Both the position numbers and the translations under genes were made by a program. Under the pieces are notes generated by a model that worked only from the letters and a program-made list of their open reading frames with translations, was not told the DNA's origin and did no database searches. This document shows, in pieces, positions 1 to 34,700 of a DNA stretch of 64,000 nucleotides (the stretch's first letter is position 1; the number at the start of each line of letters is the position of its first letter). The DNA is from Scenedesmus sp. PABB004 (taxonomy: Eukaryota), in the NCBI GenBank assembly GCA_014905635.1, contig JABVCE010000024.1, positions 248,001 to 312,000 of the forward strand. The letters run 5' to 3'.

Positions 1-1973
1 AGGGCGGCTCCCTGCCCCGTTTCCCGCCCACCCCGCCGCCGCCGCTGCCACCGCCGCGGCCGCGGCCGCCGCCGTGCGGCAGCGCGCGCAGGCGCCACCT
101 GCGCCGCGGGCTGCGCGGTGCCACGCCGCTGACGGCGCAGTCGAGCGCCCACGTGTCGCTCGGGCTGGCCGCGCCCGCGGCGCCATAGGCCAGGCGAAAC
201 GCGCCGCCGTCGCCAAAGCGGCGGCCGTACGAGTTCTGCGTGCGCGGCGCGGCAGCGGGGAGCGGCGAGCTTCGTCACGCGGCCGCTCTCGGCAGGCGCT
301 CTGCGCCGCGCGGCGCGGGTGCCGCCCGGGCGTGCAGGGCGGCGCCCGCGCCCGCAGCGCACCTGGGCGATCCAGAACGAGCCGGTGTTGTTGTATCCGA
401 TCTGCGGCGCGGCGGGGCGGCGGCGGGGCCGCGGCGTGGCGACGCCGGCCGCGCGGCATCGCGGCCACGCAGAGGCCCGGCGGTGCGGCGCGGCCCCGCC
501 GCGCCGCGCGCACCAGGATGACGGCGTGGGGGAACGCGCCGCGGCGGGTCGGCCCCGCGAACACGCCAGTGGCGTTGGCGGCAAAGAAGTCCAGGAGGTT
601 GGAGTCGATTGACACCTGCGGCCCCCCGGCCGGCCGACCACGGGCTGAGCAGTCGCTCGGCTGGCTGGCCGCAGCAGCGCGCACGCCGGCGGCGCTCGCG
701 GCGGCGCACCCGCGTGAGCACCGCGCCGCGCGTGCGGATGGCGCGCTGGACCTCCCAAAACTCGGACAGCGGCCGATGGGCGCAGCCGGAGAGCGGCTGC
801 CGCGCCGCGCCGCACGCGTCGACGTCGGCGCACACGCCCGCCATGCCGAACAGCGCCGTCCCCCGCGCGTCCTCCAGCGCCGCCGCGCAGCCGGACGGCG
901 GCATCGCGCGCCCGCCGGCGGCGGCGACCGCGGCGAGCGCCTCGCGGAAGCTCCAGCCGCTCGCGCACGAGCGCTCGCCCGGCGGCAAGCAGTAGTGGGC
1001 GTACGTGCCAGAGAGCTCAAAGCCAGCGGCCGCCAGCCCGCTCGCCGCGCCGGCAGCGGCCTCGGCGGCGCTCGCGAGCGCCGCGTTCACGCACGTGCCG
1101 CACTGGCCCTGGTCCCGCACGCGCGGTCTGCGGGCGCGCGCGGGGCGGCCGCGGGAGGCGGCGTGCTCTGCGCTCTGCGCGCGCGCACGCGGGCGCACGC
1201 GGGCGCGCACGCGCGTGCGCGCTGCGCGCGCCCGTGGGGGCCCCGCACGCGCGCGCGAGCCTGCGCGCGCGCGCCGCGCCTGAGGGGCGGCAGCCGCAGC
1301 CGGCCCTGCGCCGACCAGAACGCCTGCGGTGCGGACGCCAGGGACGCCGCGGCCTCCGACAGCGAGCCGCGCTCCGCCGCCGGGACGCCGTCGCTGACGG
1401 GCGCCGCCTCGCCGCCGCCGGCGGACGCCATGAAGCGCCGCGCTGCCGCGAGCTGGCGCCGGAACAGCGCGAGGCGTGGCGGCGCGGGCTCGCCGCCGCC
1501 GACCGACATGCCGCCTGCGAGGTACGCACAGCGTCCCGGCCAAGGTCGGCGCGCGCCGCCGCGCGGGCGGTCACTGTGTGCGGTGCCGCCGGCTCACCGG
1601 GCGTGCAGCGCGCGGGCCCGTCGTGGTCGCGCGCGCGGTCGCCGCCGGTGAACGTTCCGTCGGGGCAAGGGCTGCACGGCCCCGGCCCCGGGGTCGCCTT
1701 GTACGTGTTGGGCGGGCAGACCGCGCATCTCCGGCCGTCCCCTGGGCTGGGCGCCTCGCCAGGGCCGCAGGCTCGCCCCGAGCGCACGCAGTTCGAGCCC
1801 AGCGCCTCGTAGCCGGCGATGCAGGTCGGCACGCAGCGCCCCGCGTCGCAGGTGGCGCCGAGCGCGTGCGACCTGGCCGCGCAGCCTGGCAGCCCAGGGC
1901 CGCATGGTTCGCCGTCCGGCGCGGCGCTGCAGGTGGAGGCGGCCGCGACGAGCAGCCCCAGCAGGCGCCACAT
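1..1973 (-). CDS. Secreted papain-family (C1A) cysteine protease with an N-terminal Cys-rich domain; multi-exon, 3' end runs off the window start
   Basis: ATG at 1973 begins a signal peptide (MWRLLGLLVAAASTCSA). A Cys-rich segment follows (CAVCPPNTYKATPGPGPCSPCPDGTFT). Catalytic motifs lie in successive exons: VRDQGQCGTCV (Cys codon 1091-1093), SCASGW, PHAVIL|VGYNNTGSFWIAQ (His 526-528) and NSYGRRFGDGGAFRLAYG (Asn 233-235). Confidence 0.85.
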
Positions 1974-2807
1974 CACGCTGCTGCGGCCACGGCGGGTCGG
2001 CGCCGATGGCTGCCCCGCGCGGCCATCCTAGGAGCAACGCGCGGGGTTGGTGCGCGCACGGCGACACGTTTGGCGTCTGGAGGGTCTAGGGCACTCGTAC
2101 GAGCCGGGCGCCGGGCGGTTGGGCAGGCCAGCGGGCACAGGCCGAGGTGGTGGCATCCACGGCTGCCGCCGCCCAAGGTTACGCACCTCCCAGCGCCCTC
2201 ACCAGCCCTGCTGGAGGGGCTGGAGCTGCTCAGGTCGGCAGTTTAGGTGGGTCTGCCAACCTGCACGGGCGCCCGGCGCCGGCGGCGGCGATCGGCGGCG
2301 GCGCCGCGGATTTGGCGCGCGGCGCCGCCGGCGGACCGGCGGCGGCGGTGCCCTAGAAACCCGTGCGCAGGGTCCCAGCAGCTCAATAACGCGCCCCTGT
2401 AGGCTCCTGCAGGCGCCGCAGCGCAAGCGCGCTGAAGCTGTGTGCAACCGGGGGCGTCACCGCGAGAGCAGCAGCAGCGGCGTCACCGCCGGGCACGGGA
2501 GCGGCGGCGCGTTGTTTTTTGCTGCCATGGCTTGGCGCGCTGCCGCGGTGCGTGAGAGGGCGAATTCAGGCGTCGGGGCGCCTCCCGCGCCTCCTGAGTT
2601 GCAGCCCTCAACCCTCGGCAGCCGAGTGGGCAACCCCACAGGAGCGAGCCTCCCCTGCCACGTCTCCGCACGCCCATCCCGCCCCGACCACGCCGGGCCG
2701 GCCCAGGGTCGCCACAGAACGCCCTCGTGTGTCGACTCGATCGACAGCATCTCGCAGCGACAATACGCCCCGCGTTGGCCGCGCGCGACCGCTCGGTGCC
2801 ACTGGCG

Positions 2808-4910
2808 ATGCCCTGCAGCAGCGGCCAGCGCCCGGCAAGCAGGGCGCTGCTCGCGGCGCGCGCCGCCGCGAGCCGTCCGGCGCGCCGCCGCGCGGCGCTG
2901 CTCCCCCGCGCGTCCGTCGCGGCGGGCGGCCTGCGGCAGGCGGTCTCGGTGGACCTGGAGGGCGGCCCGCTGCCGCTGAACACGCACGGCACCGGCAAGG
3001 GCGGGCAGCCGCCGTTCACGGGCCGGGTCCTTGCGGTAGAGAGGCTTGGCGGCCGCGACAAGGAGCGCGACGTGACCCACATCGTCATCGACACCGGCGG
3101 CGTCGCGTACCGGGAGGGCCAGTCCTTCGGCGTCATCCCACCCGGCACCAAGGTCAACAGCCGCGGCGTGGAGGTCCCGCAGCACGTGCGACTCTACTCC
3201 ATCGCGTCGGGGAGGTATGGCGATGCGGGCGACGGGCAGACGTGCACGCTCTGCGTCGTGCGCGTGATATACCCAGGTCCGCGCCGAGGGGCGCCCGCCT
3301 CGCGCAGCGCCGCGCCCGGGGCGCCGCCCACCCTCGCGCCGCGCCGCGCGCCGCCGGCCGCGCCAGACCCCGTGACGGGGGCCGAGGTGCGCGGCGTGTG
3401 CTCAAACTACCTCGCCGACGTCAAGCCCGGCGACGAGCTGACCATGACGGGCCCGAGCGGTGCGGCGGCGGCGGCGGCGCCGGCGGTTTAGGGGGCGCTC
3501 CAAACCCTGAACCGCGCGCCCAGCTCGTGCCTGAGCGCGAGCCTCCCTGCGCGAGCGCGGCGCGCGCGCGCCGACCTGCCGCCGGTGGCGGCGCCGCCGC
3601 CGCGCGCGCACCGCGGCAGGCACGGCGCTGCTGCTGGTGGACCAGCCCTGGTCCAAGCGCATCGTCTGCGTGTCCACCGGTGCGGCGGCGGCGCCGCCCC
3701 GTCCCTTCCGTTCCGCCGAAGGGGGCCGGGCCCGCCCGCCCCGCAAGCTTAGGCCCTAAGCCCTAAACCCTAAACCCCGCGCCCCGCGGCCAGGCACCGG
3801 CATCGCGCCCTTCCGCTCCTTCTGGCGGCGCATCTTCTACGACGCCCTGCCCGGCCAGCCGGCGCAGCCCTTTGCCGACGGCGCCTTCTTCTGGCTCCTC
3901 GCGGGTGCGGCAGAGGCACCGGCGGTGCAGGCGGCACAGGCGGCGGCATCGCGGGCAGAGCGCCGCGCCCGCGCCAGCCCAGCCGCCGTACTGCCACCCC
4001 TCGCCCTTATTCGACCCCACCTGCCCACCCACCCACCCGCCCACCCACACCCATCCACTCACACCCACCGACCCACCCACCCACCCACCCACCCACACCC
4101 ACCCACGCAGGCTTTGCCAACACCGACAGCGTGCTCTACGGCGACGAGCTCGCCGCCGCGCGCGCGGCCAACCCGGGGCACATGCGCCTGGACGTCGCGC
4201 TCTCGCTCGAGCAGACCAACGCGGCCGGCGGACCGGAGTATGTGCAGGTGCGGCGGCAGCGCGGCAGCGCGGCGCGGCGCACGCGCACGCGCGCACACTC
4301 CCGCGGCGCGCGGCGCACGCCCGCGCGCGGCCGGCCGGCCCGCGCGCGCCGGACACGGCCGCCGTGTTCACCGCCCGCCCCGCCTGCCGGCGGCGGCGGC
4401 GTGGCGGCGTGGCGGTCGCGCGCAGGACCGCATCCGGGAGCACGCCGACGAGTTCCTCGACCTCATGGCCTCTGACGACGCAATCTTCTACTTCTGTGGC
4501 CTCAAGGTGCGCCGCCGCCCTTGGCGGCGTGCTGCCGCCGCCGCTCGGGTTTAGGGTTTAGGGTTAAGGGTTGACTTCTGCGGCCTCAAGGTGCAGCCCT
4601 TGGCGGCGTGCTGCCGCCGCCGCAGAGCTGCTGCTGGGGCGGGGCTTGGGGCGGGGCTTGGAGCGGGCCCAGCGGGGCTCAGTCAGCGGGGCCCAGCGGG
4701 CCCTGCGCCGCGGCGCTGCAGGCTGACCGCGCGCGGCCTCACCGTGCCCGCCGCCGCGCCGCCCGCGCCGCGCCCGCGCCGCAGCGCATGTATGCGAGCG
4801 TGCTTGAGGTGCTCGAGTCGATGGGCCGCGAGCGCAGCCCGGCCCTGGACGTGCCGGCGCTCATCGCGCAGCTCAAGAAGAGCCACCGCTGGCACGTGGA
4901 GACGGCGTGA
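2808..4910 (+). CDS. Plastid-type ferredoxin-NADP+ reductase (FNR)-like flavoprotein, atypical paralogue; multi-exon
   Basis: Arg/Ala/Ser-rich transit-peptide-like N-terminus. Motifs YREGQSFGVIPPG, RLYSIAS, GVCSNYL, TGPSG, TG|TGIAPFRSF, YVQ|DRI, YFCGLK and terminal RWHVETA* are spread over GT-AG exons. Confidence 0.92.
3751..3778. repeat. Intronic telomere-like (CCCTAAA)n motif
   Basis: aggccctaagccctaaaccctaaacccc lies just upstream of the acceptor at about 3793. Confidence 0.7.
4490..4623. repeat. Direct duplication (about 50-55 bp) of an exon/intron junction flanking a (TTTAGGG)n insert
   Basis: Copy 1 at 4490-4544, ggtttagggtttagggttaagggtt within 4545-4573, copy 2 at 4574-4623. Confidence 0.85.
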
Positions 4911-5327
4911 GCGCGAGGCGGGCCCCGGCCGCGCACGGCGCGGCGGGCTCGACCAGGCGTGCCACCGCCGCGTGCGCGGCGGGAACGGGCGAGGCAGACG
5001 GCCGCCCCCGCGGGCGGCCGAGGCGGGGACGCGCCCCGAGGCGCGTCGATGGCGGTGGCGCTGCGATGAGAGCTGGTGTCGCTGGCTGCACTGATCGCAC
5101 TTGCCCTGGGGGAAGGGGTGCCTGCGCTCGGTCCGTCCCACGCTGCACTCCGCGGGTGCGGCGAACGCGCCCCGCGCTGATCCTGTTGTCACTTTGAACT
5201 GCGCACTTGGCGCGCACCGCCGCCGGCCCCGTGCGGGGCACACACTTGCAACGCACTTGCACACACTTTGTTGAATGAAACAGAGGAGCCACTGTGGTGC
5301 ATCAGCACCGCCCCGCGTGCCCGCAGG

Positions 5328-7513
5328 CTAGCTCGGCGCCGGCGTGCCGGCCACCGCCGCCGCCATCGCGGCCAGCGCCGCCGCCGACGCGGCGTCCTGC
5401 ACCACGGGCTGCGCGCCCTGGCCCGCCGCCTGCGCGTCGGGGGCGCCGCTCGCGTACACCTGCGCGCGGCGCGGCGCGGGCGTGGTGATCCGCGCGGCGT
5501 GGCCTCCTCCTCGCTGGGCTGGCCGCAGCGCCGCCAGCAGCGCAGCGCGCGCTCGCGCAGCGCAGCGCACCGTGTAGCCGTCGTAATCTGGGTACGCCTC
5601 CGCCGCAAACATCCAGACCATCGCGGCGACGAGCACGCCGCCGCCGGCGACGCTCTCGGTCAGCAGCGCCGACATCTGCGGTCCGCGCGGCGCAAAGGTC
5701 GGGCCGCGCGGGCGTCACGCGGGCACCGGGCCGGGCGGCGCCGGGCCGGGCGCGCCCGGCGCCGCCGTCCGCAAGCGCAGCGGGCGCGTGCACGCGCCTG
5801 CTGGAACAGCGCGGTCCGCCCCGCCCCCGCCGGCTTCTTGCCAAACTCCTGCAGCACTAGCGGCTTTCCCCCGAGCGCCTCGGCGCACGCGCGCATGTGC
5901 GCGCGCACCCACTCCACGCTCCACCTGCGGCGCGCGCGGCGCTCGCATGAGGCGGGCGCCCGCGCCGCCCCCGCCGCGCCGCCGCGCCGCCGCGCCCGCC
6001 AAGGCGCACCGGCACGTGTCGTCGTCGCTGCCGGGGCACCACTGGTCGGCGTACATGTGGATTGAGGCAAAGTCTATGTGAGGGCTTGAGAACTCACGCA
6101 CAAAGTCGACGCCGTGCGTGACGTTGTAGGGGTTTGCCGGCAGCAGCCCTAGGGTTTACGGTCAGCCGCAGCGGCGGCGGCGCGGCGCTCGGCGGCGGGC
6201 GGCGGGCGCGCGGCGCGCCGCGCGCGGGACCGTCGCCCGGTCCAGCAGCCGCCGCACACAGCGCACCCGGGCTGCTGGGGCCGAAGAAGCCCTCCAGCCC
6301 CACCGTCACGGGGTGCGTCGCGTCGAGGCTCTTGACGTGCGCCGCGGCGGCGTGCACCCACGCGGCGACGCGGCCCGCGCCCGCGTCGCCCTCGCAGCGG
6401 CACTCGTTGGCCAGGTCCCAGGAGTGAATGGCCGGGTCGTCCCTGCGCGGCGGCGCCGCGGCGCCGCGGCCTGAGCGCCCCCGGCGGCGAGACCCCCGGC
6501 GCCAGGCGCAGCTGCCTCAGCTGGCCGCGCGGCGCGCGCCCGCGGCGCCCGCCGCAGCGCGCCTGTACGGCACGCCGGTGAGCGTGTTGGTGCGGCCGAC
6601 GAGCGCTGCGACAAAGTTGGCGTACAGTGCCTGCGCCGCCGCGTCTGAGAAGAACGCGTCGCCGCCGGGCTTGGCGTCCTCGGGCAGGCCCTGCGATGGG
6701 GGGCGGCGCGTCACTGCTCGCCCCAGCGCGGGGCGTGCTGGGGCGTTGGCGCGCGTCGGCGCGGGCGCTCGGCCGCCCGGCGCGCGCGTCCTCACCTGGG
6801 CCCACTTGACGTATTGAGGCATGCCCCCAAACTCAGCCCAGTAGTTGGTCAGCGTGAGCTGGAAGCGCAGCCCGCGCTTCGACCCCTCGACCAGCAGCCA
6901 GTCGAGCCCTGCCAGCACCTGCTCCTCCAGCTGGCCTGCGCGCGCGGGCGCAGGCGCGCGTGTGCCGACTGCGCGCAGGAGGGCGGCGGTGCGGCGCGCG
7001 CGCCGCGGCGCGCGCACCGGGCGCCGGCTGAAGGCTCATCCACCCGGGGCCGTCGTTGAACGCCCATATGCGCAGCACCGTGAAGCCGAGCTTGGCCGCC
7101 GCGTCGAGCGTGTCGAGCACCAGCGGGCGGCAGCCAGGGTCGGCGGCGCGCGTCTGCAGCACGCGGCGGCGACGGGGCACGCGGCGGCGACGCCGGGTCA
7201 GCAGCGGCGCGTTGCGTGGCACGCGCGTAGATCCAGCGGCGTGGCGTGCGCGCGGGCTGCGCGGCGCGCCGCTGCGGCCGCGGCGCGGCGCCGACGCGGC
7301 GGCATCTGCTGCCGCGCCGCCGCGCCGGCAGGGGCCGCTGCCGGCCGCCGCGCTGAGCCCAACCCACGCGCTGGAGCGCACCAGCAGGTAGTAGCAGTTA
7401 GCGCCCACGAACGGCTTCATCGCGCCCGCGGCCGCTGGCGCCGGCGCCGGCGCCGGCGCTGCTGCGGCGGGGCCCGCGGGCGCCTCAGGCGAGGAGGAGA
7501 AGCAGCCGCCCAT
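5328..7513 (-). CDS. GH5 (subfamily 7-like) endo-1,4-beta-mannanase; multi-exon
   Basis: Spliced motifs FVGANCYYLL, LRIWAFNDG, GLDWLL, LTLTNYWAEFGGMPQYVKW, VGRTNTLTGVPYR|DDPAIHSWDLANEC (acid/base Glu), VTVGLEGFFG, IDFASIHMYADQW, KPLVLQEFG (nucleophile Glu) and VWMF..DYDGYT. Starts MGGCFSS at 7513. Confidence 0.93.
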
Positions 7514-7826
7514 TGTCTGGCGGCGCGGGCGTCTCTGGCTGCGGCGGCGACGGGCTCCGCGGCAGCTGCGGCGGGGCGGTCGCGTCCGCGTCGCGCGAGC
7601 GCGGCGGCGGTCACGCGTCTGTTGCTCTGCCCTCACGCGCCGGGCCGCCAGACCGACCCAGCCCTGTCCCTGAACCCAAACTCTTCAGCCCGCGCCACTC
7701 CTCGCTGCTCCCTCGCCCCTCGCCCTCGCCGCCGGCGGGCCAAAAAATCCGACAGCCCTCGGCGCAGCTGCGCCACGTCTGCGCCTGCACGTCCTCGTCC
7801 AGCCCCCAGCGCAGCTGCGCCAGCCC

Positions 7827-8979
7827 TCAGCGCTGCTGCGCCACGTCCGCGCCGGCGCCGTCGTCGTCCACCAGCTCCATTACCTCGATGTCCCTGCAGG
7901 CCAGGCCAGGGCGCGGCGCGGCATCGCAGGGCGCGGCGCGGCGCGGCGTACGCAGCCGTCAGGCCCGGCGCGGCACCAGCCCGCGCTGAGAGCCTTCCTC
8001 CCAAACCGCGACCGACCGCACCTGCCGCCCGCGACCCACTCGGTGTAGCCGCCGCGCAAGATGGCGAGGTCGGCGCCAAGGCCTTCCCGGCAGAGGTCGT
8101 ACGCGGCGACGAGGCAGCGCGTCTGCCAGCCGCGCCGGTACGCCTCTGTCGACTCGAGCACGCCGCCCTGGCTGCAGTACAGCACGATGCGCCGCGCCGC
8201 GTCGCCGCCGCGCTCGGCGGCGCCGTGCAGCGCGGCGACCTGCGCCGCAAAGTCGGGGTTGACCTCGGTGCCGGCGAGCACGCCGAACGCGGCGTAGCCG
8301 AGCCGGCGCGCGATCTTGAAGGGGCTCCAGCCGGTGATGGGGCGATAGAACGGGACGTTGACGGCGCCCGGGACGTGGCCCTGCGCGGCGCGGCACGGGC
8401 GCGCGTGCGGGTGTGCGCATTTGCCGGGCGGCGCGGGGGGCGGCGGCGCGGGGCTCTTGCCTTGTCGTAGTCATCCTCCGGCCGCACGTCCACGAGCAGC
8501 GCGCCGCGCTCCAGCGCGAAGATGACCTCCTGCGGCGACAGCACCGCGCACTGCGGCGCGCGCGCGGGCGGGCGGCGCGGGGCGCGTCGCCGCAGCCCGC
8601 GGCGGCCGCGCCCGGCCGCGCTGCGCAGCGCGCGCCAGGCTGGGCGCGCACCCCGGCCTCGAGCAGCGCCGAACGCATCGCGTCCCAGCCGCGCGGGCTC
8701 GTCGGCGAGTGGCCGTCCACGGCCAGGCCGCTCGGGCCGCTGCGCTCGGGCGCTGCGGCGCGCCTGCGCGGCGGCGGCGTGCGCGGGCGGTCGGCGCCGC
8801 GCCGACTCGGCGGGATCTGCCCCCGCCACACCGGCCTGCGCTTGTGCGCGTGTTGCGCTGGCCGAGGGGCCGCGCCAGCGCCTGCCCGCGCACCGGACGT
8901 GCGGCACTCGCCGCTGCTGCTGCCCGAGTGCGCGCCCCGCGCGGCTGCGCAGCGCGGTGCCCGGCGACGACGCGATCAT
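7827..8979 (-). CDS. Chloroplast rhodanese-like domain protein; multi-exon
   Basis: Transit-peptide-like start (MIASSPGTALRSRAGR). Motifs LLVDVRPEDDYDK|GHVPGAVNVPF, GTEVNPDF, IVLYCSQGG and LRGGYTEW. Last exon RDIEVMELVDDDGAGADVAQQR* ends at 7827. Confidence 0.85.
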
Positions 8980-9365
8980 GGTGAGCGGGGAATGAAATGA
9001 GAGGTCGCTGCGGTCGCTGCGCTCGCTGCGCGGCGCGGCGCGCCCGGTCGCGGCGGTTGCGCCGCGCGCGGTCGGCGGCGTCTGTGGCAGCACCCCGGAG
9101 AAGCGGCGGGCTGGGGCGCTGGAGGTAGCCGGCAGGCGGGGGGCCGATCGGCGGTGCGCGGCGTGCGCGGGCCGCGGCGGCGCAGCGCGGCGCTGTGCCC
9201 CGCCGCACCGCTGCGCGGCCGCCCGCCGCCACCCGCTCAGGAGCCGCCCTGTGCCGCGCTCCGCCCCCGCCCCCGCGGCACGCTCCCCGCGACCCGCACG
9301 GCGCCAACGCCCACCAGCTGTGGCGAAAAGCCCCCCACGCCTGGCTCCGAGGCCTGATCGGCGCC

Positions 9366-11006
9366 ATGGCGCTCGCATCGTCGCGGGCGCAGCGGAGGAG
9401 CGGCGGGGCCGGGGCGCGCGCGGGCGGGGCGAGCAGCAGCAGCAGCAGCAGCAGCAGCAGGCCTCGCCTCGTGCGCGCCCCCGCGGCCGGCTCGGACGCC
9501 CAGACCACCAGCCGGCCGGCCAGCGTGTTTGACGTGCTGAGGCCCATCACGTCGGCGGGCCAGGTGCGGCGCAGCGGCGGCGGCGCAGTGGCGGCGGGCG
9601 CGGCGGGTGCGGCGGGTGCAGCGCGAGGCGCAAGCCGCGCGTGCACGCCCGTCGCAACCACCAGATCAAGGAGCTCAACCAGGGCATCCGGACCTTCTAC
9701 AACGAGTCCAGCGGGCTCTGGGAGGACGTGTGGGGGGAGCACATGCACCACGGTGCGCCGCCGCCGCGCGCTTGCACAGCCGAGAGCCGCAGCACGCCCG
9801 CGCTCACGCACCGCGCCCCGCGCCCCGCGCCCTGCGCCCCGCGCCCCGCGGCGCGGCTCAGGCTACTACCCGGCCGGTGCGCCGCCCAAGAGCAACCAGG
9901 AGGCGCAGGTGGAGATGATCGAGCAGACCCTCGCCTGGGCGGGCGTGAGCGGCGCCGCGACGGTGCGGCGCCGGCGCGGCGCGGCGGGCAGGCGGCGGGC
10001 AGGCAGGCGGCGTGGCAGGCAGGCGGCGGCGCCGCCGAGCGAGCCCGCGCGCGCGCCCGGCGCCGCATGCAGATGGTCGACGTGGGCTGCGGCATCGGCG
10101 GCAGCAGCCGGCACATCGCGCGCAAGTTTGGCTGCACCGCGCGGGGTATCACACTCAGTGACGTCCAGGCGGCGCGCGCCAACGAGCTCGCCGCCAAGGC
10201 GGGCCTCGCCGAGCGCTGCAGCTTCCAGGCGCGCGGCGGGCGCGGCCGCGCAGCCGCCGCGCCGCTCCCTCCCCGTGCCGCCCTCGCCCCGCGCCGCCGC
10301 CGAGCGCCGGCCCCCGCGCGCGCGCGCCGCAGGTCGCCGACGCGCTCGCGCAGCCCTTCCCGGACGGCAGCTTCGACCTCGTGTGGTCAATGGAGAGCGG
10401 CGAGCACATGCCCGACAAGGCGCGCTTCGTGGGCGAGCTCGCGCGCGTGTGCGCGCCCGGCGGCGCGATCATCGTCGTCACGTGGTGCCACCGCGCGCTC
10501 GCGCCGGGCGAGGACGCGCTGCGTCCCGAGGTGCCGCGGCGGCGCGCGCGCACGCACGTGCTCAATCAATAACACCGCACGCTCTCCGCCGCGCTCGACG
10601 CCGCGGCCGCGCGCCCGCCGGCCCACCCACGCCGCCGCCGCGGCGCCGCGCTCGCAGGAGCAAGCGCTGCTGGACCGCATCTGCGAGGCCTACTACCTCC
10701 CCGCATGGTGCTCGGTCGAGGACTACCGCCGCCTCTTTGGTGAGAGAGAGAGGGCGCAGCACGCAGCACGCAGCGCGCCGGCGCGCGGGCGGCGGGGCCC
10801 GGCGCGGCGCGCGCGCCCGTGCGGGCGCCGACGCGCCGCCCGCGGGGTCCGCACGCGTGCCCACGGCTCCGGGCGCAGAGGCGGAGGGCCTCGTCGGCGT
10901 GCAGACCGCCGACTGGTCGGCCGAGGTCGCGCCGTTCTGGGCGGAGGTCATCAAGTCGGCGCTCACCACCAGCGGCGTGCGCGGGCTGCTCAAGGCCGGC
11001 TGGTGC

Positions 11007-11046
<40 letters not shown>

Positions 11047-11291
11047 ACGCCGCCGCGGGGGCCCCACGCCGCGGGCCGGCGCCGGCGCCGGCGCCCGCGC
11101 GCCGAGGCGCGCTGCACGCGCGCTGCACGTGCGAACGCGCACGCGCGCACGCGCGCCGCCGCTGCTGCCGCCGCCGCTGCCGCAGGACGACGATCAAGGG
11201 CGCGCTTGTGATGCCGCTCATGGCCCAGGGGCTGCGGCGGGGCGTGATAAAGTTCAACCTCATCACCGCGCGCAAGCCGCCCGCCGCGTGA
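9366..11291 (+). CDS. VTE4: Gamma-tocopherol methyltransferase (tocopherol O-methyltransferase); multi-exon
   Basis: Motifs IRTFYNESSGLWEDVWGEHMHHG|YY, VDVGCGIGGSSRHIA, FQ|VADALAQPFPDGSFDLVWSMESGEHMPDK, VTWCHR, ICEAYYLPAWCS, ADWSAEVAPFW and TIKGALVMPLM..G.IKFNLIT. Confidence 0.96.
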
Positions 11292-12364
11292 GCGGCGGCG
11301 GCGCGCGGTGGCGGCGGCCCTGTGGCCGCCCCCTGCCGCCGCTGCGGGGGTGAGAGACCGAGCGGCGCGGTCCGCGCGGTCCGCGCCGCGCGCTGGGCCT
11401 GGGCTCTGGCGCTGCGCTGTGTGCTCGGCGGTCGACCTGTGCCTGGTGTGGGGAGGTGCCCCACACCTCGGGGGCGCGCGCTCTGGGCAAACTCTGGCCT
11501 GCGCAGGCGCGTCGTGGTGGCCCGCGCGCGCCGGCAGTGGCGTCGGCGGCACCGGCGGCGGCTCTGTCGGCGGCAGCAGCTCTCTCAGCCCGCAGCTCGC
11601 GATCACTCCCAGCGCGACGTTGGGCGAGCCGCGCCGTCGACGAGGCCGCGGCTGCCGTGAAAAAAACACAAAACATGCTGCTGCTGCTCTGCCCGCCTGG
11701 CGGCTCCCCCGGCGTGCGCCACGCACACTCGACACAGCGCGCCGTCCCGCGCGGGCCGCAGCGAGCAGCGCCAGCTGCGCCGGCGCACCGGCAGCAGCAG
11801 CGCGTCCCGCGCGCACGGCCTGGCAGGCGTCCTGGTGTCGCGCCAGGTGCGGGATCGGCGCCGCCCTGCACGTGAGGCTGCCTCCGGGGCGGCTGGGCGC
11901 GACGGCGAGGCTGCCCGGCCGAGCAGCCTCTCTCGCGGCCGCTGGGGGCCGGAGCGCGCCGGCGGGTGCTCGGCGGGCCGCTGTTGGGGGCCATGCGCCC
12001 GCCAGCTCGCGCGCCGGCGGCCCTGGTGCGCGGGGGCGCGCGGTCGGCAGCAATCGCACGCCCCGCCCCGCCCGCCTGCGCCGCCCTGCAGGGCGCACGG
12101 CCATCCAGGCGGCGGAGGGGCTCCAGATCTCGCTCAGGCGGCGCCGGCAGCGCAGCCCCGGGCTGTGGCCGCGCCACAGGCCCGGCTGGAGCTGCTCTGG
12201 GCTGCTCCGGCTTGAATGCAGGCCGCGTTGGCGCGCAGCCACCGCGAGACAGCAGAGCGGGAGCAGAGCGACGCGCCTGAGGCGCGGGCGCGGCGGCGCG
12301 CAGGGCAGGGCGGTCGCGGCGGCGCGGCGCGCGCGGCGCGGCAGCAGCAGACGACAGCGGCTCC

Positions 12365-31740: not shown

Positions 31741-34700
31741 GCGGGCCCCTCGCCCTCCTCCCTCACGACGCAGGGCGGGCAGGTACAGGCCACGTTCTGG
31801 CGCGAGGCGGCCGACAGGTACCTCGACGTGCTGCAGGAGGGCAAGGTGCGCCGCCGCGCCGCCGCGGAGGCGGCCCGGCGGCCGCGCGAGCCCCGCCCGC
31901 CAAGCAAAGCACACGCACGCCTCTCCCGCACACGCGCGCGCCTGCACGCGTGACCAGCCCGCGCCCTCAACCCTAAACCCTAAACCCTGAACCCTAAACC
32001 GCAGACGTACTACTTCAGCAAGTTCACGGTCAAGCCCGCCAACAAGCAGTACGCGACGGTGAAGAACGACTACGAGATCCACCTCGACGCCCGCACCGAG
32101 ATCACAGAGGCGGCCGACCAGGGCGGCATCATGTGAGCGCTCGGGGGGGGGGGGGGGGGGGCAGGCGGGCGGCGGCAGCGCGGGGCGGGGGTCGGGCGCG
32201 GCGCGGGGGCGTGCTGCGCGCGCCGCCGGCGCGCGCCCGCACGGGTGTGGTTCTGAGCCCCGGCGGGCCGCTGCACGACGCGCAGCGTGTCGCACGTGCT
32301 CGACCTCGTGCCGATCGACAAGCTGCCGCGCCACGTCGGCCGCAAGGCGCGGCGCCGCCGCGCACCGCGCGCCGCCGCCGCGCCCCGCACGCCGCGCGGC
32401 GCCGCCGGCGGCCTCGCCGTGACGCCAGCCCCCGCTCTGCGAGCCACCCGAGCAGGCGACCGTGGACGTGCTGGGCGTCGTGACGGCGTGCGGGGCGCTG
32501 GGAACGATCAAGCGCAAGGCCGACGCGACCGAGGTGCCGCGCCGCGACGTGACGCTCGCCGACGCGACGTGAGCGGCCGCTGCTGCCGGGGGCCGGCGCT
32601 GCCACGGGGCCGGCGCTGCCGCGGGATGTGCTGCTGCCGCGGGATGTGCTGCTGCTGCGGGATGTGCCGCTGCCGCGGGGCGCCGCCGCGGGGTGCCGAC
32701 GCGCTCGCCCGCGCCTGTGCCCGCCGCGGGCGCCGCGCCGCTCAGCGCGCGCAGCGTGGTGCTGACGCTGTGGGCCGACAACGCGACGCGCGCCGAGCTC
32801 GACGGCTGCGAGGGCTCCCTGATGCAGGCGCGCCGCGCAGCGGCGGCGGGCGGGCGCGCTCGACGCGCCGCAGCGCCGCGCGGCGGCGCGCCGACGCACG
32901 CCGACGCCCCGCCGCCGCGCCGCCGCCCCGCCGCAGGTGACCTGCGTGCGCGTGGGCGACTACAACGGCTGCTCCATCAGCGCGGTCACGCGCAGCGAGG
33001 TGCGCCGCCGCCGCGCACGCCGCGCCCCGCGCCGCGCCCCGCTCCGCGCCGCGGCCGGGCGCTCGCCCGCTCGCCCGCTCACCCGCCGCGGCGCGGCGCC
33101 TCTTGCCGCCCTCGTCAGGTGACCATCAACCCCACGAGCCCCGAGGCCGAGGCGCTGCGCGCGTGGTGGGACACCGAGGGCCGCGGCGCGGCAATCACAC
33201 CCATCGGCCAGGCCGGCGCCGCGGGCGGCGGCGCGGGCGGGCGCGGCAGCCGGCTGCAGTTCCTGGACGACGTGGCGGTGCGTGGGGGCCCGCCGCGCCA
33301 CCGCAGCGCTGCCGCGCCCGCCGCCGCCGCCCGCTGCGCGCGGGCCGCGCTTTCCGCTCGCCTCGTCACGCCTCCGCTCACGCCGCGCGCCGCCCCGCCC
33401 CGCGCGCCGCGCGGCGTCAGGCCGAGGAGGCGGCCATGCCGTCGCCGGACGCCAAGCCGACCTACCACGACGTGATCGCCACGGTGCTGCAGGTGCGCGC
33501 GCCGGCGCTGCTGCGGCCCGCGCCCAGCACGCACGCGCCGCGCCCGCCAACGCCCACCACCAACGCCCACCACCACCAACGCCCACCACCACCAACGCCC
33601 ACCACCAACGCCCACCTGCGCACGCCGCGCCCACCACCAACGCGCACCACCTCCGCCCACCTGCGCACGCCGCGCCCACCACCAACGCCCACCACCAACG
33701 CTCACCACCGACGCCCACCAAACCCCACCACCAACGCCAACGCAGGTGCGTGACGACACGACGATGTACTACCTGGCAAACCCGGAGAACAACAAGAAAG
33801 TGGTGAGCTGATTTGATGTGGCACGCGTTTGCAAGCAGGGCGTGAAACAGAGCGTGAAGCAGAGCGGGAAGCAGATTTGAGTTTGAAGCAGAGTGTGGAG
33901 CAGAGCGTGATGCAGCGCGCGAAGCAGCGTGTGAAGCAGAGCGTGACGAAGCTTGGGGGCGCCCGGCCCGCGCCCGCGCCGCCCGCAGGAGCCGCGCGAC
34001 GGCCGCTACTGGTGCGAGGGCGACGCGCGCTACGTCGACGCGGCGCAGCACAGGTGCGCGCGCGGCCGCGCGGCGCCCCGCCGCGGCCCCGCTGCCGCCG
34101 CCGCGCCGCGCCGCAAGCGCCGCCGCGCCCACCGGCGCGCCGCGCCCGCCGCACCCGCCGACGCGTGCTGCCTGCCGCCGCGGCCGCGGCCGCCCAGGTA
34201 CGTGCTGCAGGCCAAGGTCGCCGACGCGACGCGGGAGATGTATGTGAGCATGTTCAACGACCAGGTGACGCCCCCTGAATTGAACTGAACGGCTGGGCTG
34301 CGTTTGAAACGCTGCTGCATTTTTTGTTGTTTTGAGGCGCGCGAGTCAAACGTAGCCTCGCGCGCTCGGCGGCGGCTGGGCGCTGCGTGGGCTGACGCGC
34401 CCCGCCGCCCGCCCGCAGGGCGCGGCGCTGCTGGGGTGCAGCGCGGACGAGCTCGCGGCGAAGCAGGCCGGCGACGAGGCGGGGTTCAAGCGGGCGGTCG
34501 GCGGCGCCAAGTGGAGCGAGTGGGCGATGACGCTGACGGCGCGCGCGCGCGAGTACAACGGAGAGCGCCGCATGCGCTACACCGTCACGCGGGTGCGCTG
34601 TCGGGGGAGGAGGAGGAAGGGGGGGGGGGGCTGCCGTGGCGCGGGCGGGGCTGCCGCGGGGCTGCTGGCTGTGCGCGCTGCGCGCCGCGCCGCGCCGTGC

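Follow-up and report, generated by a model that had tools for sequence, protein, structure and literature searches.

A remodelled ferredoxin-NADP+ reductase paralogue of green algae: a candidate for altered nucleotide specificity

Ferredoxin-NADP+ reductase (FNR) is strongly specific for nicotinamide adenine dinucleotide phosphate, NADP(H), and a review has asked how the unphosphorylated stromal NAD(H) connects to photosynthetic electron flow (PMC8564385). Here we describe a gene for an FNR paralogue that lies on the + strand at 2808-4910 of a stretch of 64,000 nucleotides from the green alga Scenedesmus sp. PABB004 (assembly GCA_014905635.1, contig JABVCE010000024.1, positions 248,001 to 312,000), hereafter the window. 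An earlier note, made from the letters of the window, had taken the gene for an FNR paralogue devoid of its NADP+-specificity determinants and had proposed a candidate plastid ferredoxin:NAD(H) reductase. What the note reads from the sequence proves correct throughout, and its interpretation is borne out in part. We find that the gene belongs to a conserved algal clade, here called the ETA clade after its C-terminal residues, in which the terminal flavin-stacking tyrosine and both basic residues of the 2'-phosphate clamp have been replaced, and we weigh what this may mean for the nucleotide that the enzyme uses.

FNR-like pieces are spread over the three + strand frames of the region, with non-coding stretches between them, and three-frame translation together with an exact junction search gave one solution, a seven-exon structure (Table 1) in which every intron is GT-AG and five of the six have the donors GTGCGG or GTGCGC. 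The spliced translation is identical, letter for letter, to the protein P0001 (358 aa), which its source names 'hypothetical protein HT031_005649 [Scenedesmus sp. PABB004]'. The GC fraction at third codon positions of the coding sequence is 0.94, and that of the surrounding DNA is 75-84% (500-base windows over 1-12000).

Table 1. The FNR paralogue gene and other features of the window, in window positions.
Feature	Position	Strand	Content
FNR paralogue coding region	2808..4910	+	7 exons, 6 introns, 358 codons + TGA
Exon 1	2808..3276	+	presequence (~residues 1-45); start of FAD-binding barrel; RLYSIAS 3189-3209; Val151 3258-3260
Exon 2	3367..3459	+	GVCSN FAD-contact motif 3393-3407; end of FAD domain (..MTGPSG)
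Exon 3	3620..3679	+	Thr189 (3622-3624) at canonical Lys153, then first strand of nucleotide-binding domain
Exon 4	3794..3904	+	conserved GTGIAPFR nucleotide-binding loop, 3794-3816
Exon 5	4111..4247	+	altered 2'-phosphate region SLEQTNAAGGPEYVQ at 4203-4247
Exon 6	4426..4506	+	ends FYFCGLK; CGLK 4495-4506; Cys314 (4495-4497), equivalent of catalytic Cys272
Exon 7	4785..4910	+	Arg318-Met-Tyr320 (4785-4793); Glu356 (4899-4901); Ala358 (4905-4907); stop TGA 4908-4910
Long open reading frame	74-1651	+	no Pfam match
Long open reading frame	6845-8470	+	no Pfam match
Long open reading frame	7633-9378	-	no Pfam match
(CCCTAAA)n telomere-like repeat	3754-3774	+	intron 3
(CCCTAAA)n telomere-like repeat	4550-4570	-	intron 6
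(CCCTAAA)n telomere-like repeat	31964-31998	+
Direct duplication	4514-4544 / 4593-4623	+	intron 6; 79-nt spacing, 97% identical
Copy of exon 6 end and splice donor	~4566-4592		ttctgcggcctcaag followed by gtgcag; within region 4486-4625
Microsatellite-like CCCA-rich tract	4016-4117		intron 4, reaching the exon 5 acceptor

The product is predicted to fold as an FNR. An AlphaFold2 model built on a 36-sequence alignment has a mean predicted local distance difference test score (pLDDT) of 87.4 and a predicted template-modelling score of 0.83, with pLDDT below 50 only at residues 1-38. The best Foldseek match in the PDB is maize root FNR (5h59; E 4e-38, template-modelling score 0.91 by target, root-mean-square deviation 2.1, 43% identity), ahead of further FNRs from plants and cyanobacteria; maize root FNR also came first (2.9e-22) when exon 1 was compared with the PDB by phmmer, and Pfam PF00175 matches residues 205-323 (3.8e-16). 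Nothing in mature FNR corresponds to the N-terminal 45-55 residues, which are rich in Ala, Arg and Ser and are predicted to be disordered; the first 30 of them hold seven basic and no acidic residues, which fits a chloroplast and a mitochondrial presequence alike. This extension suggests targeting to an organelle, most likely the plastid.

We compared 17 full-length members of the ETA clade with 200 canonical FNRs. The two sets were defined by C-terminus and by a CGLKRMY or CGLKGM motif, so that columns 276-278 and 314 are fixed by construction, and the independent evidence on these columns is the separate inspection of motifs and C-termini in the collected proteins. Residues are given in spinach numbering carried over from the leaf FNR P0108, which we take to agree with spinach Arg93, Ser234, Arg235, Lys244, Cys272 and Tyr314. 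Much of the enzyme is unaltered. The motifs RLYSIAS, GVCSN, GTGIAPFR and CGLK and the near-terminal Glu, which the earlier note had reported as intact, are all in place; among 36 aligned sequences RLYSIAS and GVCSN vary little or not at all, the loop region is free of gaps and the GTGIAPFR loop (T207-R215) is invariant. Ser96, Ser234, Tyr246, Cys272 and Glu312 (Ser131, Ser276, Tyr288, Cys314 and Glu356 of P0001) are retained in all 17 clade members.

The nucleotide site is a different matter. The altered NADP-binding stretch singled out by the earlier note, SLEQTNAAGGPEYVQ, stands exactly at 4203-4247; the leaf-type FNRs compared here have SREQTNEKGEKMYIQ in the same place and end in ..NVEVY. 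Position 235 (Leu277 here, 4206-4208) is Leu in 17/17 clade members and Arg in 200/200 canonical FNRs, and position 244 (Pro286, 4233-4235) is Pro in 13, Gln in two, Ala in one and Met in one, against Lys in 190 and Arg in 10. Position 116 (Val151) is Val throughout the clade and basic in 198/200 canonical FNRs (Arg 166, Lys 32), and position 153 (Thr189) is Thr in 15, Ala in one and Leu in one, against Lys in 194/200. We take Lys116 (Anabaena Arg100) to have a role in NADP binding and Lys153 (Anabaena Lys138) to belong to the ferredoxin face. Of the four 2'-phosphate residues named in the earlier note, Arg235 and Lys244 are thus lost, and Ser234 and Tyr246 are kept; the loss of basic residues reaches further, to 116 and 153; the Glu described beside the Lys-to-Pro change is present in P0001 (Glu287) and in 11/17 clade members, and is thus not clade-wide. 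The clade has also gained residues. The pyrophosphate loop after CGLK reads R-M-Y rather than the canonical G-M-x, so that Arg276 and Tyr278 (Arg318 and Tyr320 here) are new and occur in all clade members seen; other gains are Arg51, Glu54 and Arg55 in a loop of the FAD (flavin adenine dinucleotide) domain and a basic residue at position 164, besides several aromatic/aliphatic swaps that resemble core repacking. Finally, the flavin-stacking Tyr314 is replaced by Ala358, the last residue of the protein.

Among the features by which the FNR family is recognized, the protein thus has the two-domain fold, the FAD motifs RxYS and GxCS with the long loop, and the catalytic Ser96, Cys272 and Glu312; it lacks the terminal aromatic residue on the flavin re-face (Ala358 is followed by the stop) and the recognition of the 2'-phosphate by Ser-Arg, a second basic residue and Tyr, of which Ser and Tyr remain and both basic residues are gone. 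In Anabaena FNR the 2'-phospho-AMP (2'-P-AMP) half of the nucleotide is recognized by Ser223, Arg224, Arg233 and Tyr235, and the pyrophosphate is held by loops 155-160 and 261-268 (PMC8944804). The four residues correspond to spinach 234, 235, 244 and 246, and the pyrophosphate loop to CGLKGMxx.

The C-terminus HVETA, reported in place of ..VEVY, is borne out by the spliced translation. A caveat attached to it, namely that GC followed by GTGAGC, where the frame ends, could act as a splice donor and lengthen the protein, is refuted and this candidate donor rejected: in four other genomic loci (L001, L004, L005 and L002) the Ala codons GCA, GCC, GCC and GCT are directly followed by TGA, TGA, TGA and TAA, and none of the four contains a GTGAG string. 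On this comparison the donor-like string is a chance product of GCG and TGA. Transcript-derived and independently predicted clade proteins end in ..ETA throughout; the former include P0002, from a transcriptome assembly with an Enallax costatus accession prefix, whose complete open reading frame ends in ..VETA.

When P0001 served as query of a protein search, 233 of 8000 scored candidates reached E <= 1e-20. Among the best 120 of these, the full-length clade matches (409-594 bits, 58-80% identity) all end in ..VETA, and the next matches are canonical FNRs of at most 327 bits and 49% identity that end in ..VEVY or ..VETY. An exhaustive HMMER search of 1.84 billion representatives gave 2545 matches at E <= 0.001, the best 150 of which include one full-length representative of the clade (P0014) and fragments (P0043, P0077, P0095, P0127, P0144, P0153 and P0177), all other full-length proteins ending in Tyr. 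The 369 proteins collected comprise 265 that end in ..ExY, 20 that end in ..ETA and 84 fragments or mis-models. In all, the clade counts 17 full-length members and several fragments, P0031 among them, from Scenedesmaceae, Selenastraceae, Chlorella and Dunaliella, among them proteins of Tetradesmus obliquus (P0006), Raphidocelis subcapitata (P0013), Monoraphidium minutum (P0014), Chlorella ohadii (P0027), C. sorokiniana (P0290), Chlorella sp. A99 (P0291), Micractinium tetrahymenae (P0011, mis-modelled) and Dunaliella salina (P0043, partial, 90% identical to the full-length P0007). Since the substitutions recur in 17/17 full-length relatives, which represent three or more algal families, they are more than chance. 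A canonical FNR occurs alongside in Tetradesmus (P0030), Raphidocelis (P0029), Monoraphidium (P0296) and Enallax (P0288); at least in these four the ETA protein is a paralogue and not a replacement.

Among the matches listed, which cover annotated proteins only, no clade member came from Chlamydomonas, Volvox, Gonium, streptophytes or prasinophytes, where an orthologue, with an expected identity of ~60%, should rank near the top. A metagenome scan with P0001 alone found no relative, a scan with alignment A2 found five loci (L001-L005), and the ESM Atlas returned ordinary FNR clusters only. One metagenome contig (L003, 399-2961) carries another gene of this kind that has diverged further, with GGRDAERD, VVRVVY and FYFCGLKRMYSS and with ALS-SNRNKLGGVEYVQ as its 2'-phosphate stretch, so the clade appears to have further sub-types. 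As a separate observation, P0011 and the Logan protein P0015 are clear clade members whose predicted sequences read through introns or shift frame; in GC-rich algal genomes the paralogue frequently has a broken gene model, and surveys may miss it for this reason.

The expectation that such a clade would stand beside canonical FNR was confirmed by phylogeny, with a canonical copy in the same species. We built two trees with IQ-TREE, a quick one of 62 rows (46 of them chosen from outside the clade and 16 from within it; sequences that are truncated or mis-modelled, among them P0011, P0015, P0018, P0041/42, P0043, P0077, P0095 and P0096, were left out) and a careful one of 39 hand-picked, mostly named rows. 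The ETA clade is monophyletic in both, with a Shimodaira-Hasegawa approximate likelihood-ratio support of 100 in the quick tree and 100/100 in the careful one, and its stem is long (1.37 and 1.29 changes per column, respectively, against a median end branch of ~0.22). It is nested in the chlorophyte FNR clade (100/98), and within it Chlorella splits from the chlorophycean members, matching the species tree. Support for grouping the clade with chlorophycean canonical FNR is low (82/90, not starred), and for that reason the tree does not date the duplication exactly. A feature that stands apart from this placement is the lack, at columns 333-335 of alignment A1, of the three-residue insert (..DDP/EDP..) before GVCSN, which likens the clade to leaf-type and cyanobacterial FNR despite its nesting among chlorophyte sequences.

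Over the same species pairs, orthologues of the paralogue are 65-82% identical and those of canonical FNR 79-86%. The single usable pair of metagenome genes (L001 and L004, 160 codons) gave proportions of nonsynonymous and synonymous differences of pN 0.138 and pS 0.737, hence pN/pS 0.19, which we prefer to the rough rate ratio dN/dS of ~0.05 because synonymous change (dS) is saturated. Judged from these sequences, the paralogue evolves faster than canonical FNR, yet is clearly constrained. Identity to the canonical FNR of the same species is 45-49% in the nucleotide-binding domain and 56-59% in the FAD domain.

What, then, does the remodelled site bind? The flavin of canonical FNR is covered by the terminal Tyr, which has to be displaced before the nicotinamide can react, and most of the binding and specificity comes from the 2'-P-AMP half. 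In the reading that we favour, the gene product would be a functional, FAD-containing, two-domain reductase that arose by duplication of a chlorophyte (root-like) plastid-type FNR, followed by remodelling of its pyridine-nucleotide site. With no Tyr to displace, the nicotinamide would stack directly on the open flavin face; with no 2'-phosphate clamp, binding would be independent of the phosphate and would proceed through the nicotinamide end. Because both the Tyr gate and the phosphate clamp are gone and the residues of hydride transfer are kept, NADH would be accepted, either as the preferred nucleotide or as one of two, and electrons would be exchanged between NAD(P)H and ferredoxin, possibly flavodoxin, with a turnover probably below that of photosynthetic FNR and with NAD(P)H to acceptor as the likely direction. 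The Anabaena variant Y303S lends this some precedent: it shows 100% nicotinamide occupancy and broken NADP+/NAD+ selectivity, at a cost in turnover (PMC8944804), and 'significantly enhances specificity for NAD+' (PMC6272016), the slowness of Tyr-to-Ser enzymes being put down in these texts to a product that sticks. We regard it as an even chance that specificity has been switched, or relaxed, towards NAD(H).

Several points weigh against this reading. Ser234 is kept in 17/17 members and is not acidic, and NADH-specific relatives are typically acidic at this position. No conserved acidic residue is present to repel the 2'-phosphate, Glu287 being found in 11/17, and the new invariant Arg276 in the pyrophosphate loop could restore phosphate binding. 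Loss of Lys153 together with the changed loop (Arg51, Glu54, Arg55) hints that the protein partner may differ too. No canonical FNR of PABB004 itself appears among the best 120 of 5016 matches to the Tetradesmus canonical FNR, a result that is uninformative taken by itself. In Anabaena, adding changes in the pyrophosphate and 2'-phosphate regions to Y303S did not improve the activity with NAD+ (PMC6272016), and the Xanthomonas FPR, with Ala255 on the flavin re-face, uses NADPH with a Km of ~7-11 µM (PMC5943930).

The alternative that survives best is nevertheless one that we hold to be unlikely: the enzyme would still depend on NADPH through a rebuilt site, Arg276 and Tyr278 holding the nucleotide in another geometry together with Ser234 and Tyr246, and would work as a slow enzyme of the bacterial FPR kind that passes electrons from NADPH to ferredoxin or flavodoxin past a small residue on the flavin. 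The presence of Arg318 and Tyr320 in every clade member seen, the retention of Ser234 and Tyr246 in 17/17, the NADPH use of the Xanthomonas FPR with its re-face Ala (PMC5943930) and a closest solved fold that is a heterotrophic, root-type FNR all agree with it. Set against them is the loss in all 17 of Arg235, Lys/Arg244 and Lys/Arg116, the first two of which recognize 2'-P-AMP (PMC8944804); moreover, bacterial FPRs extend past the Ala at which the clade protein stops.

Less probable still is that turnover of pyridine nucleotides has been lost altogether, the FAD relaying electrons of ferredoxin or flavodoxin to some other acceptor, be it a quinone, a small molecule or another protein, or the paralogue having a binding or regulatory role. 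Four basic residues that contact the nucleotide are lost, the stem branch is long (~1.3 changes per site), the partner face has changed (Lys153 lost, the new charged loop Arg51/Glu54/Arg55) and the clade evolves faster than canonical FNR, as such a loss might leave it; but the GTGIAP loop, Cys272, Ser96 and Glu312, which position the nicotinamide and transfer hydride, are invariant in the clade, and without the Tyr the nicotinamide site becomes open, not closed (PMC8944804). That the gene is a decaying duplicate private to this genome, as the earlier note had allowed, or an annotation or assembly artefact of extremely GC-rich DNA, is rejected as scarcely credible: a GC content of 75-84% does make open frames common, but the frame is intact across seven exons with GT-AG introns, the substitutions are common to 17 full-length relatives in at least three families, pN/pS is 0.19, P0002 is a complete, transcript-derived open reading frame and the AlphaFold model is confident.

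If the favoured reading of an altered, NAD(H)-accepting specificity is carried further, the ETA protein would act in an organelle as a naturally occurring ferredoxin/flavodoxin:NAD(H) oxidoreductase, and would be the first plastid-type FNR to couple low-potential carriers to NADH instead of NADPH; we consider this possible but doubtful. It could serve as the dedicated reductase of an iron-sparing flavodoxin system, or as a valve connecting the NADH pool of the stroma with that of ferredoxin. The flavodoxin FLD1 has been reported in Dunaliella and several Sphaeropleales, and not in Chlamydomonas (PMC12207447, PMC10372677). This host range overlaps that of the known paralogue hosts (Sphaeropleales, Dunaliella, Chlorella), so that flavodoxin may be the partner; the co-occurrence is a lead only. 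A multi-omics expression table for Dunaliella, as far as it was available, has a single FNR1 label per species.

The terminal Tyr and the Ser-Arg/Lys clamp for the 2'-phosphate are the textbook basis for the preference of FNR for NADPH, and attempts to engineer an NAD+-using FNR have been largely unsuccessful (PMC6272016). Here evolution removed gate and clamp together and changed the pyrophosphate loop, and selection has maintained the result in several algal families, which makes the ETA clade a ready-made test of how FNR specificity is set. An NADH-using enzyme of the FNR type, if that is what it is, would link stromal NAD(H) to photosynthetic electron flow and would be relevant to work on hydrogen and redox engineering with Scenedesmus, Chlorella and Dunaliella; should the enzyme be NADPH-specific after all, it would represent an alternative way of building the site. 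We found no description of the clade in the literature searched, most subscription journals being outside it, so that it may have been described elsewhere.

The remaining features of the window lie in and around the gene (Table 1). The three neighbouring long open reading frames without a Pfam match are expectable by chance in DNA so rich in GC. Short interstitial telomere-like repeats, a 14-mer of which matched eight times with at most one mismatch against none expected, occur in introns 3 and 6 in opposite orientation and thereby flank exons 4-6. The direct duplication in intron 6 also copies the end of exon 6 with its splice donor and so creates a second donor-like site, and the CCCA-rich tract in intron 4 accounts for the strong negative GC skew of 4001-4500.

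Among known systems, the closest are maize root FNR (5h59, 1jb9, 3lo8) and chlorophyte FNR (P0030), which share with the ETA protein the two-domain fold, the motifs RLYS, GVCSN, GTGIAP and CGLK, the catalytic Ser96, Cys272 and Glu312 and an N-terminal presequence. In contrast to them the clade has Ala for the terminal Tyr, Leu for Arg235, Pro, Gln, Ala or Met at 244, Val for Lys/Arg116, Thr for Lys153, Arg for Gly276 and Tyr at 278, and it lacks the ..DDP.. insert that both carry before GVCSN; a clade protein is 45-50% identical to the canonical FNR of its own species. Cytochrome b5 reductase and the FAD domain of nitrate reductase are NADH-dependent members of the FNR superfamily, whose counterpart of Ser234 is acidic and whose loop reads CGPPxM. 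Like the clade, this type has no aromatic gate to displace and no basic clamp for the 2'-phosphate, whereas the clade keeps Ser in 17/17, has the loop CGLKRMY and is far closer to FNR in sequence, so that, on the definition as commonly given, it does not belong there.

A small residue in place of the flavin-stacking Tyr is also found in engineered enzymes, namely Anabaena Y303S (2bsa, 1w34), pea Y308S (1qfy) and corn root Y316A/S (5vw2, 5vw5), and PDB entries of such variants are among the Foldseek matches. In these the site is fully occupied by the nicotinamide and discrimination between NADP+ and NAD+ breaks down (PMC8944804, PMC6272016), but they are single laboratory mutants with the full 2'-phosphate clamp, whose binding of NADP+ is too tight and whose turnover is poor; the clade has lost the clamp too, and shows both changes in a natural, conserved combination. 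Bacterial FPRs of subclass I (Xanthomonas citri, Azotobacter, Rhodobacter) likewise have Ala on the flavin re-face, and are slow, NADPH-specific enzymes that pass electrons from NADPH to a carrier protein; past the Ala comes an AFVEK extension stacked against the adenine of FAD, and the 100-116 loop is missing from them (PMC5943930). The clade protein ends at its Ala and aligns without gaps through the region of that loop, and hence stands outside this subclass, for which Ala, an extension with Phe or Trp on the FAD adenine and absence of the loop are characteristic. By descent and fold the ETA protein is a plastidic-type FNR, and it departs from that type in the terminal aromatic residue and in the basic 2'-phosphate clamp.

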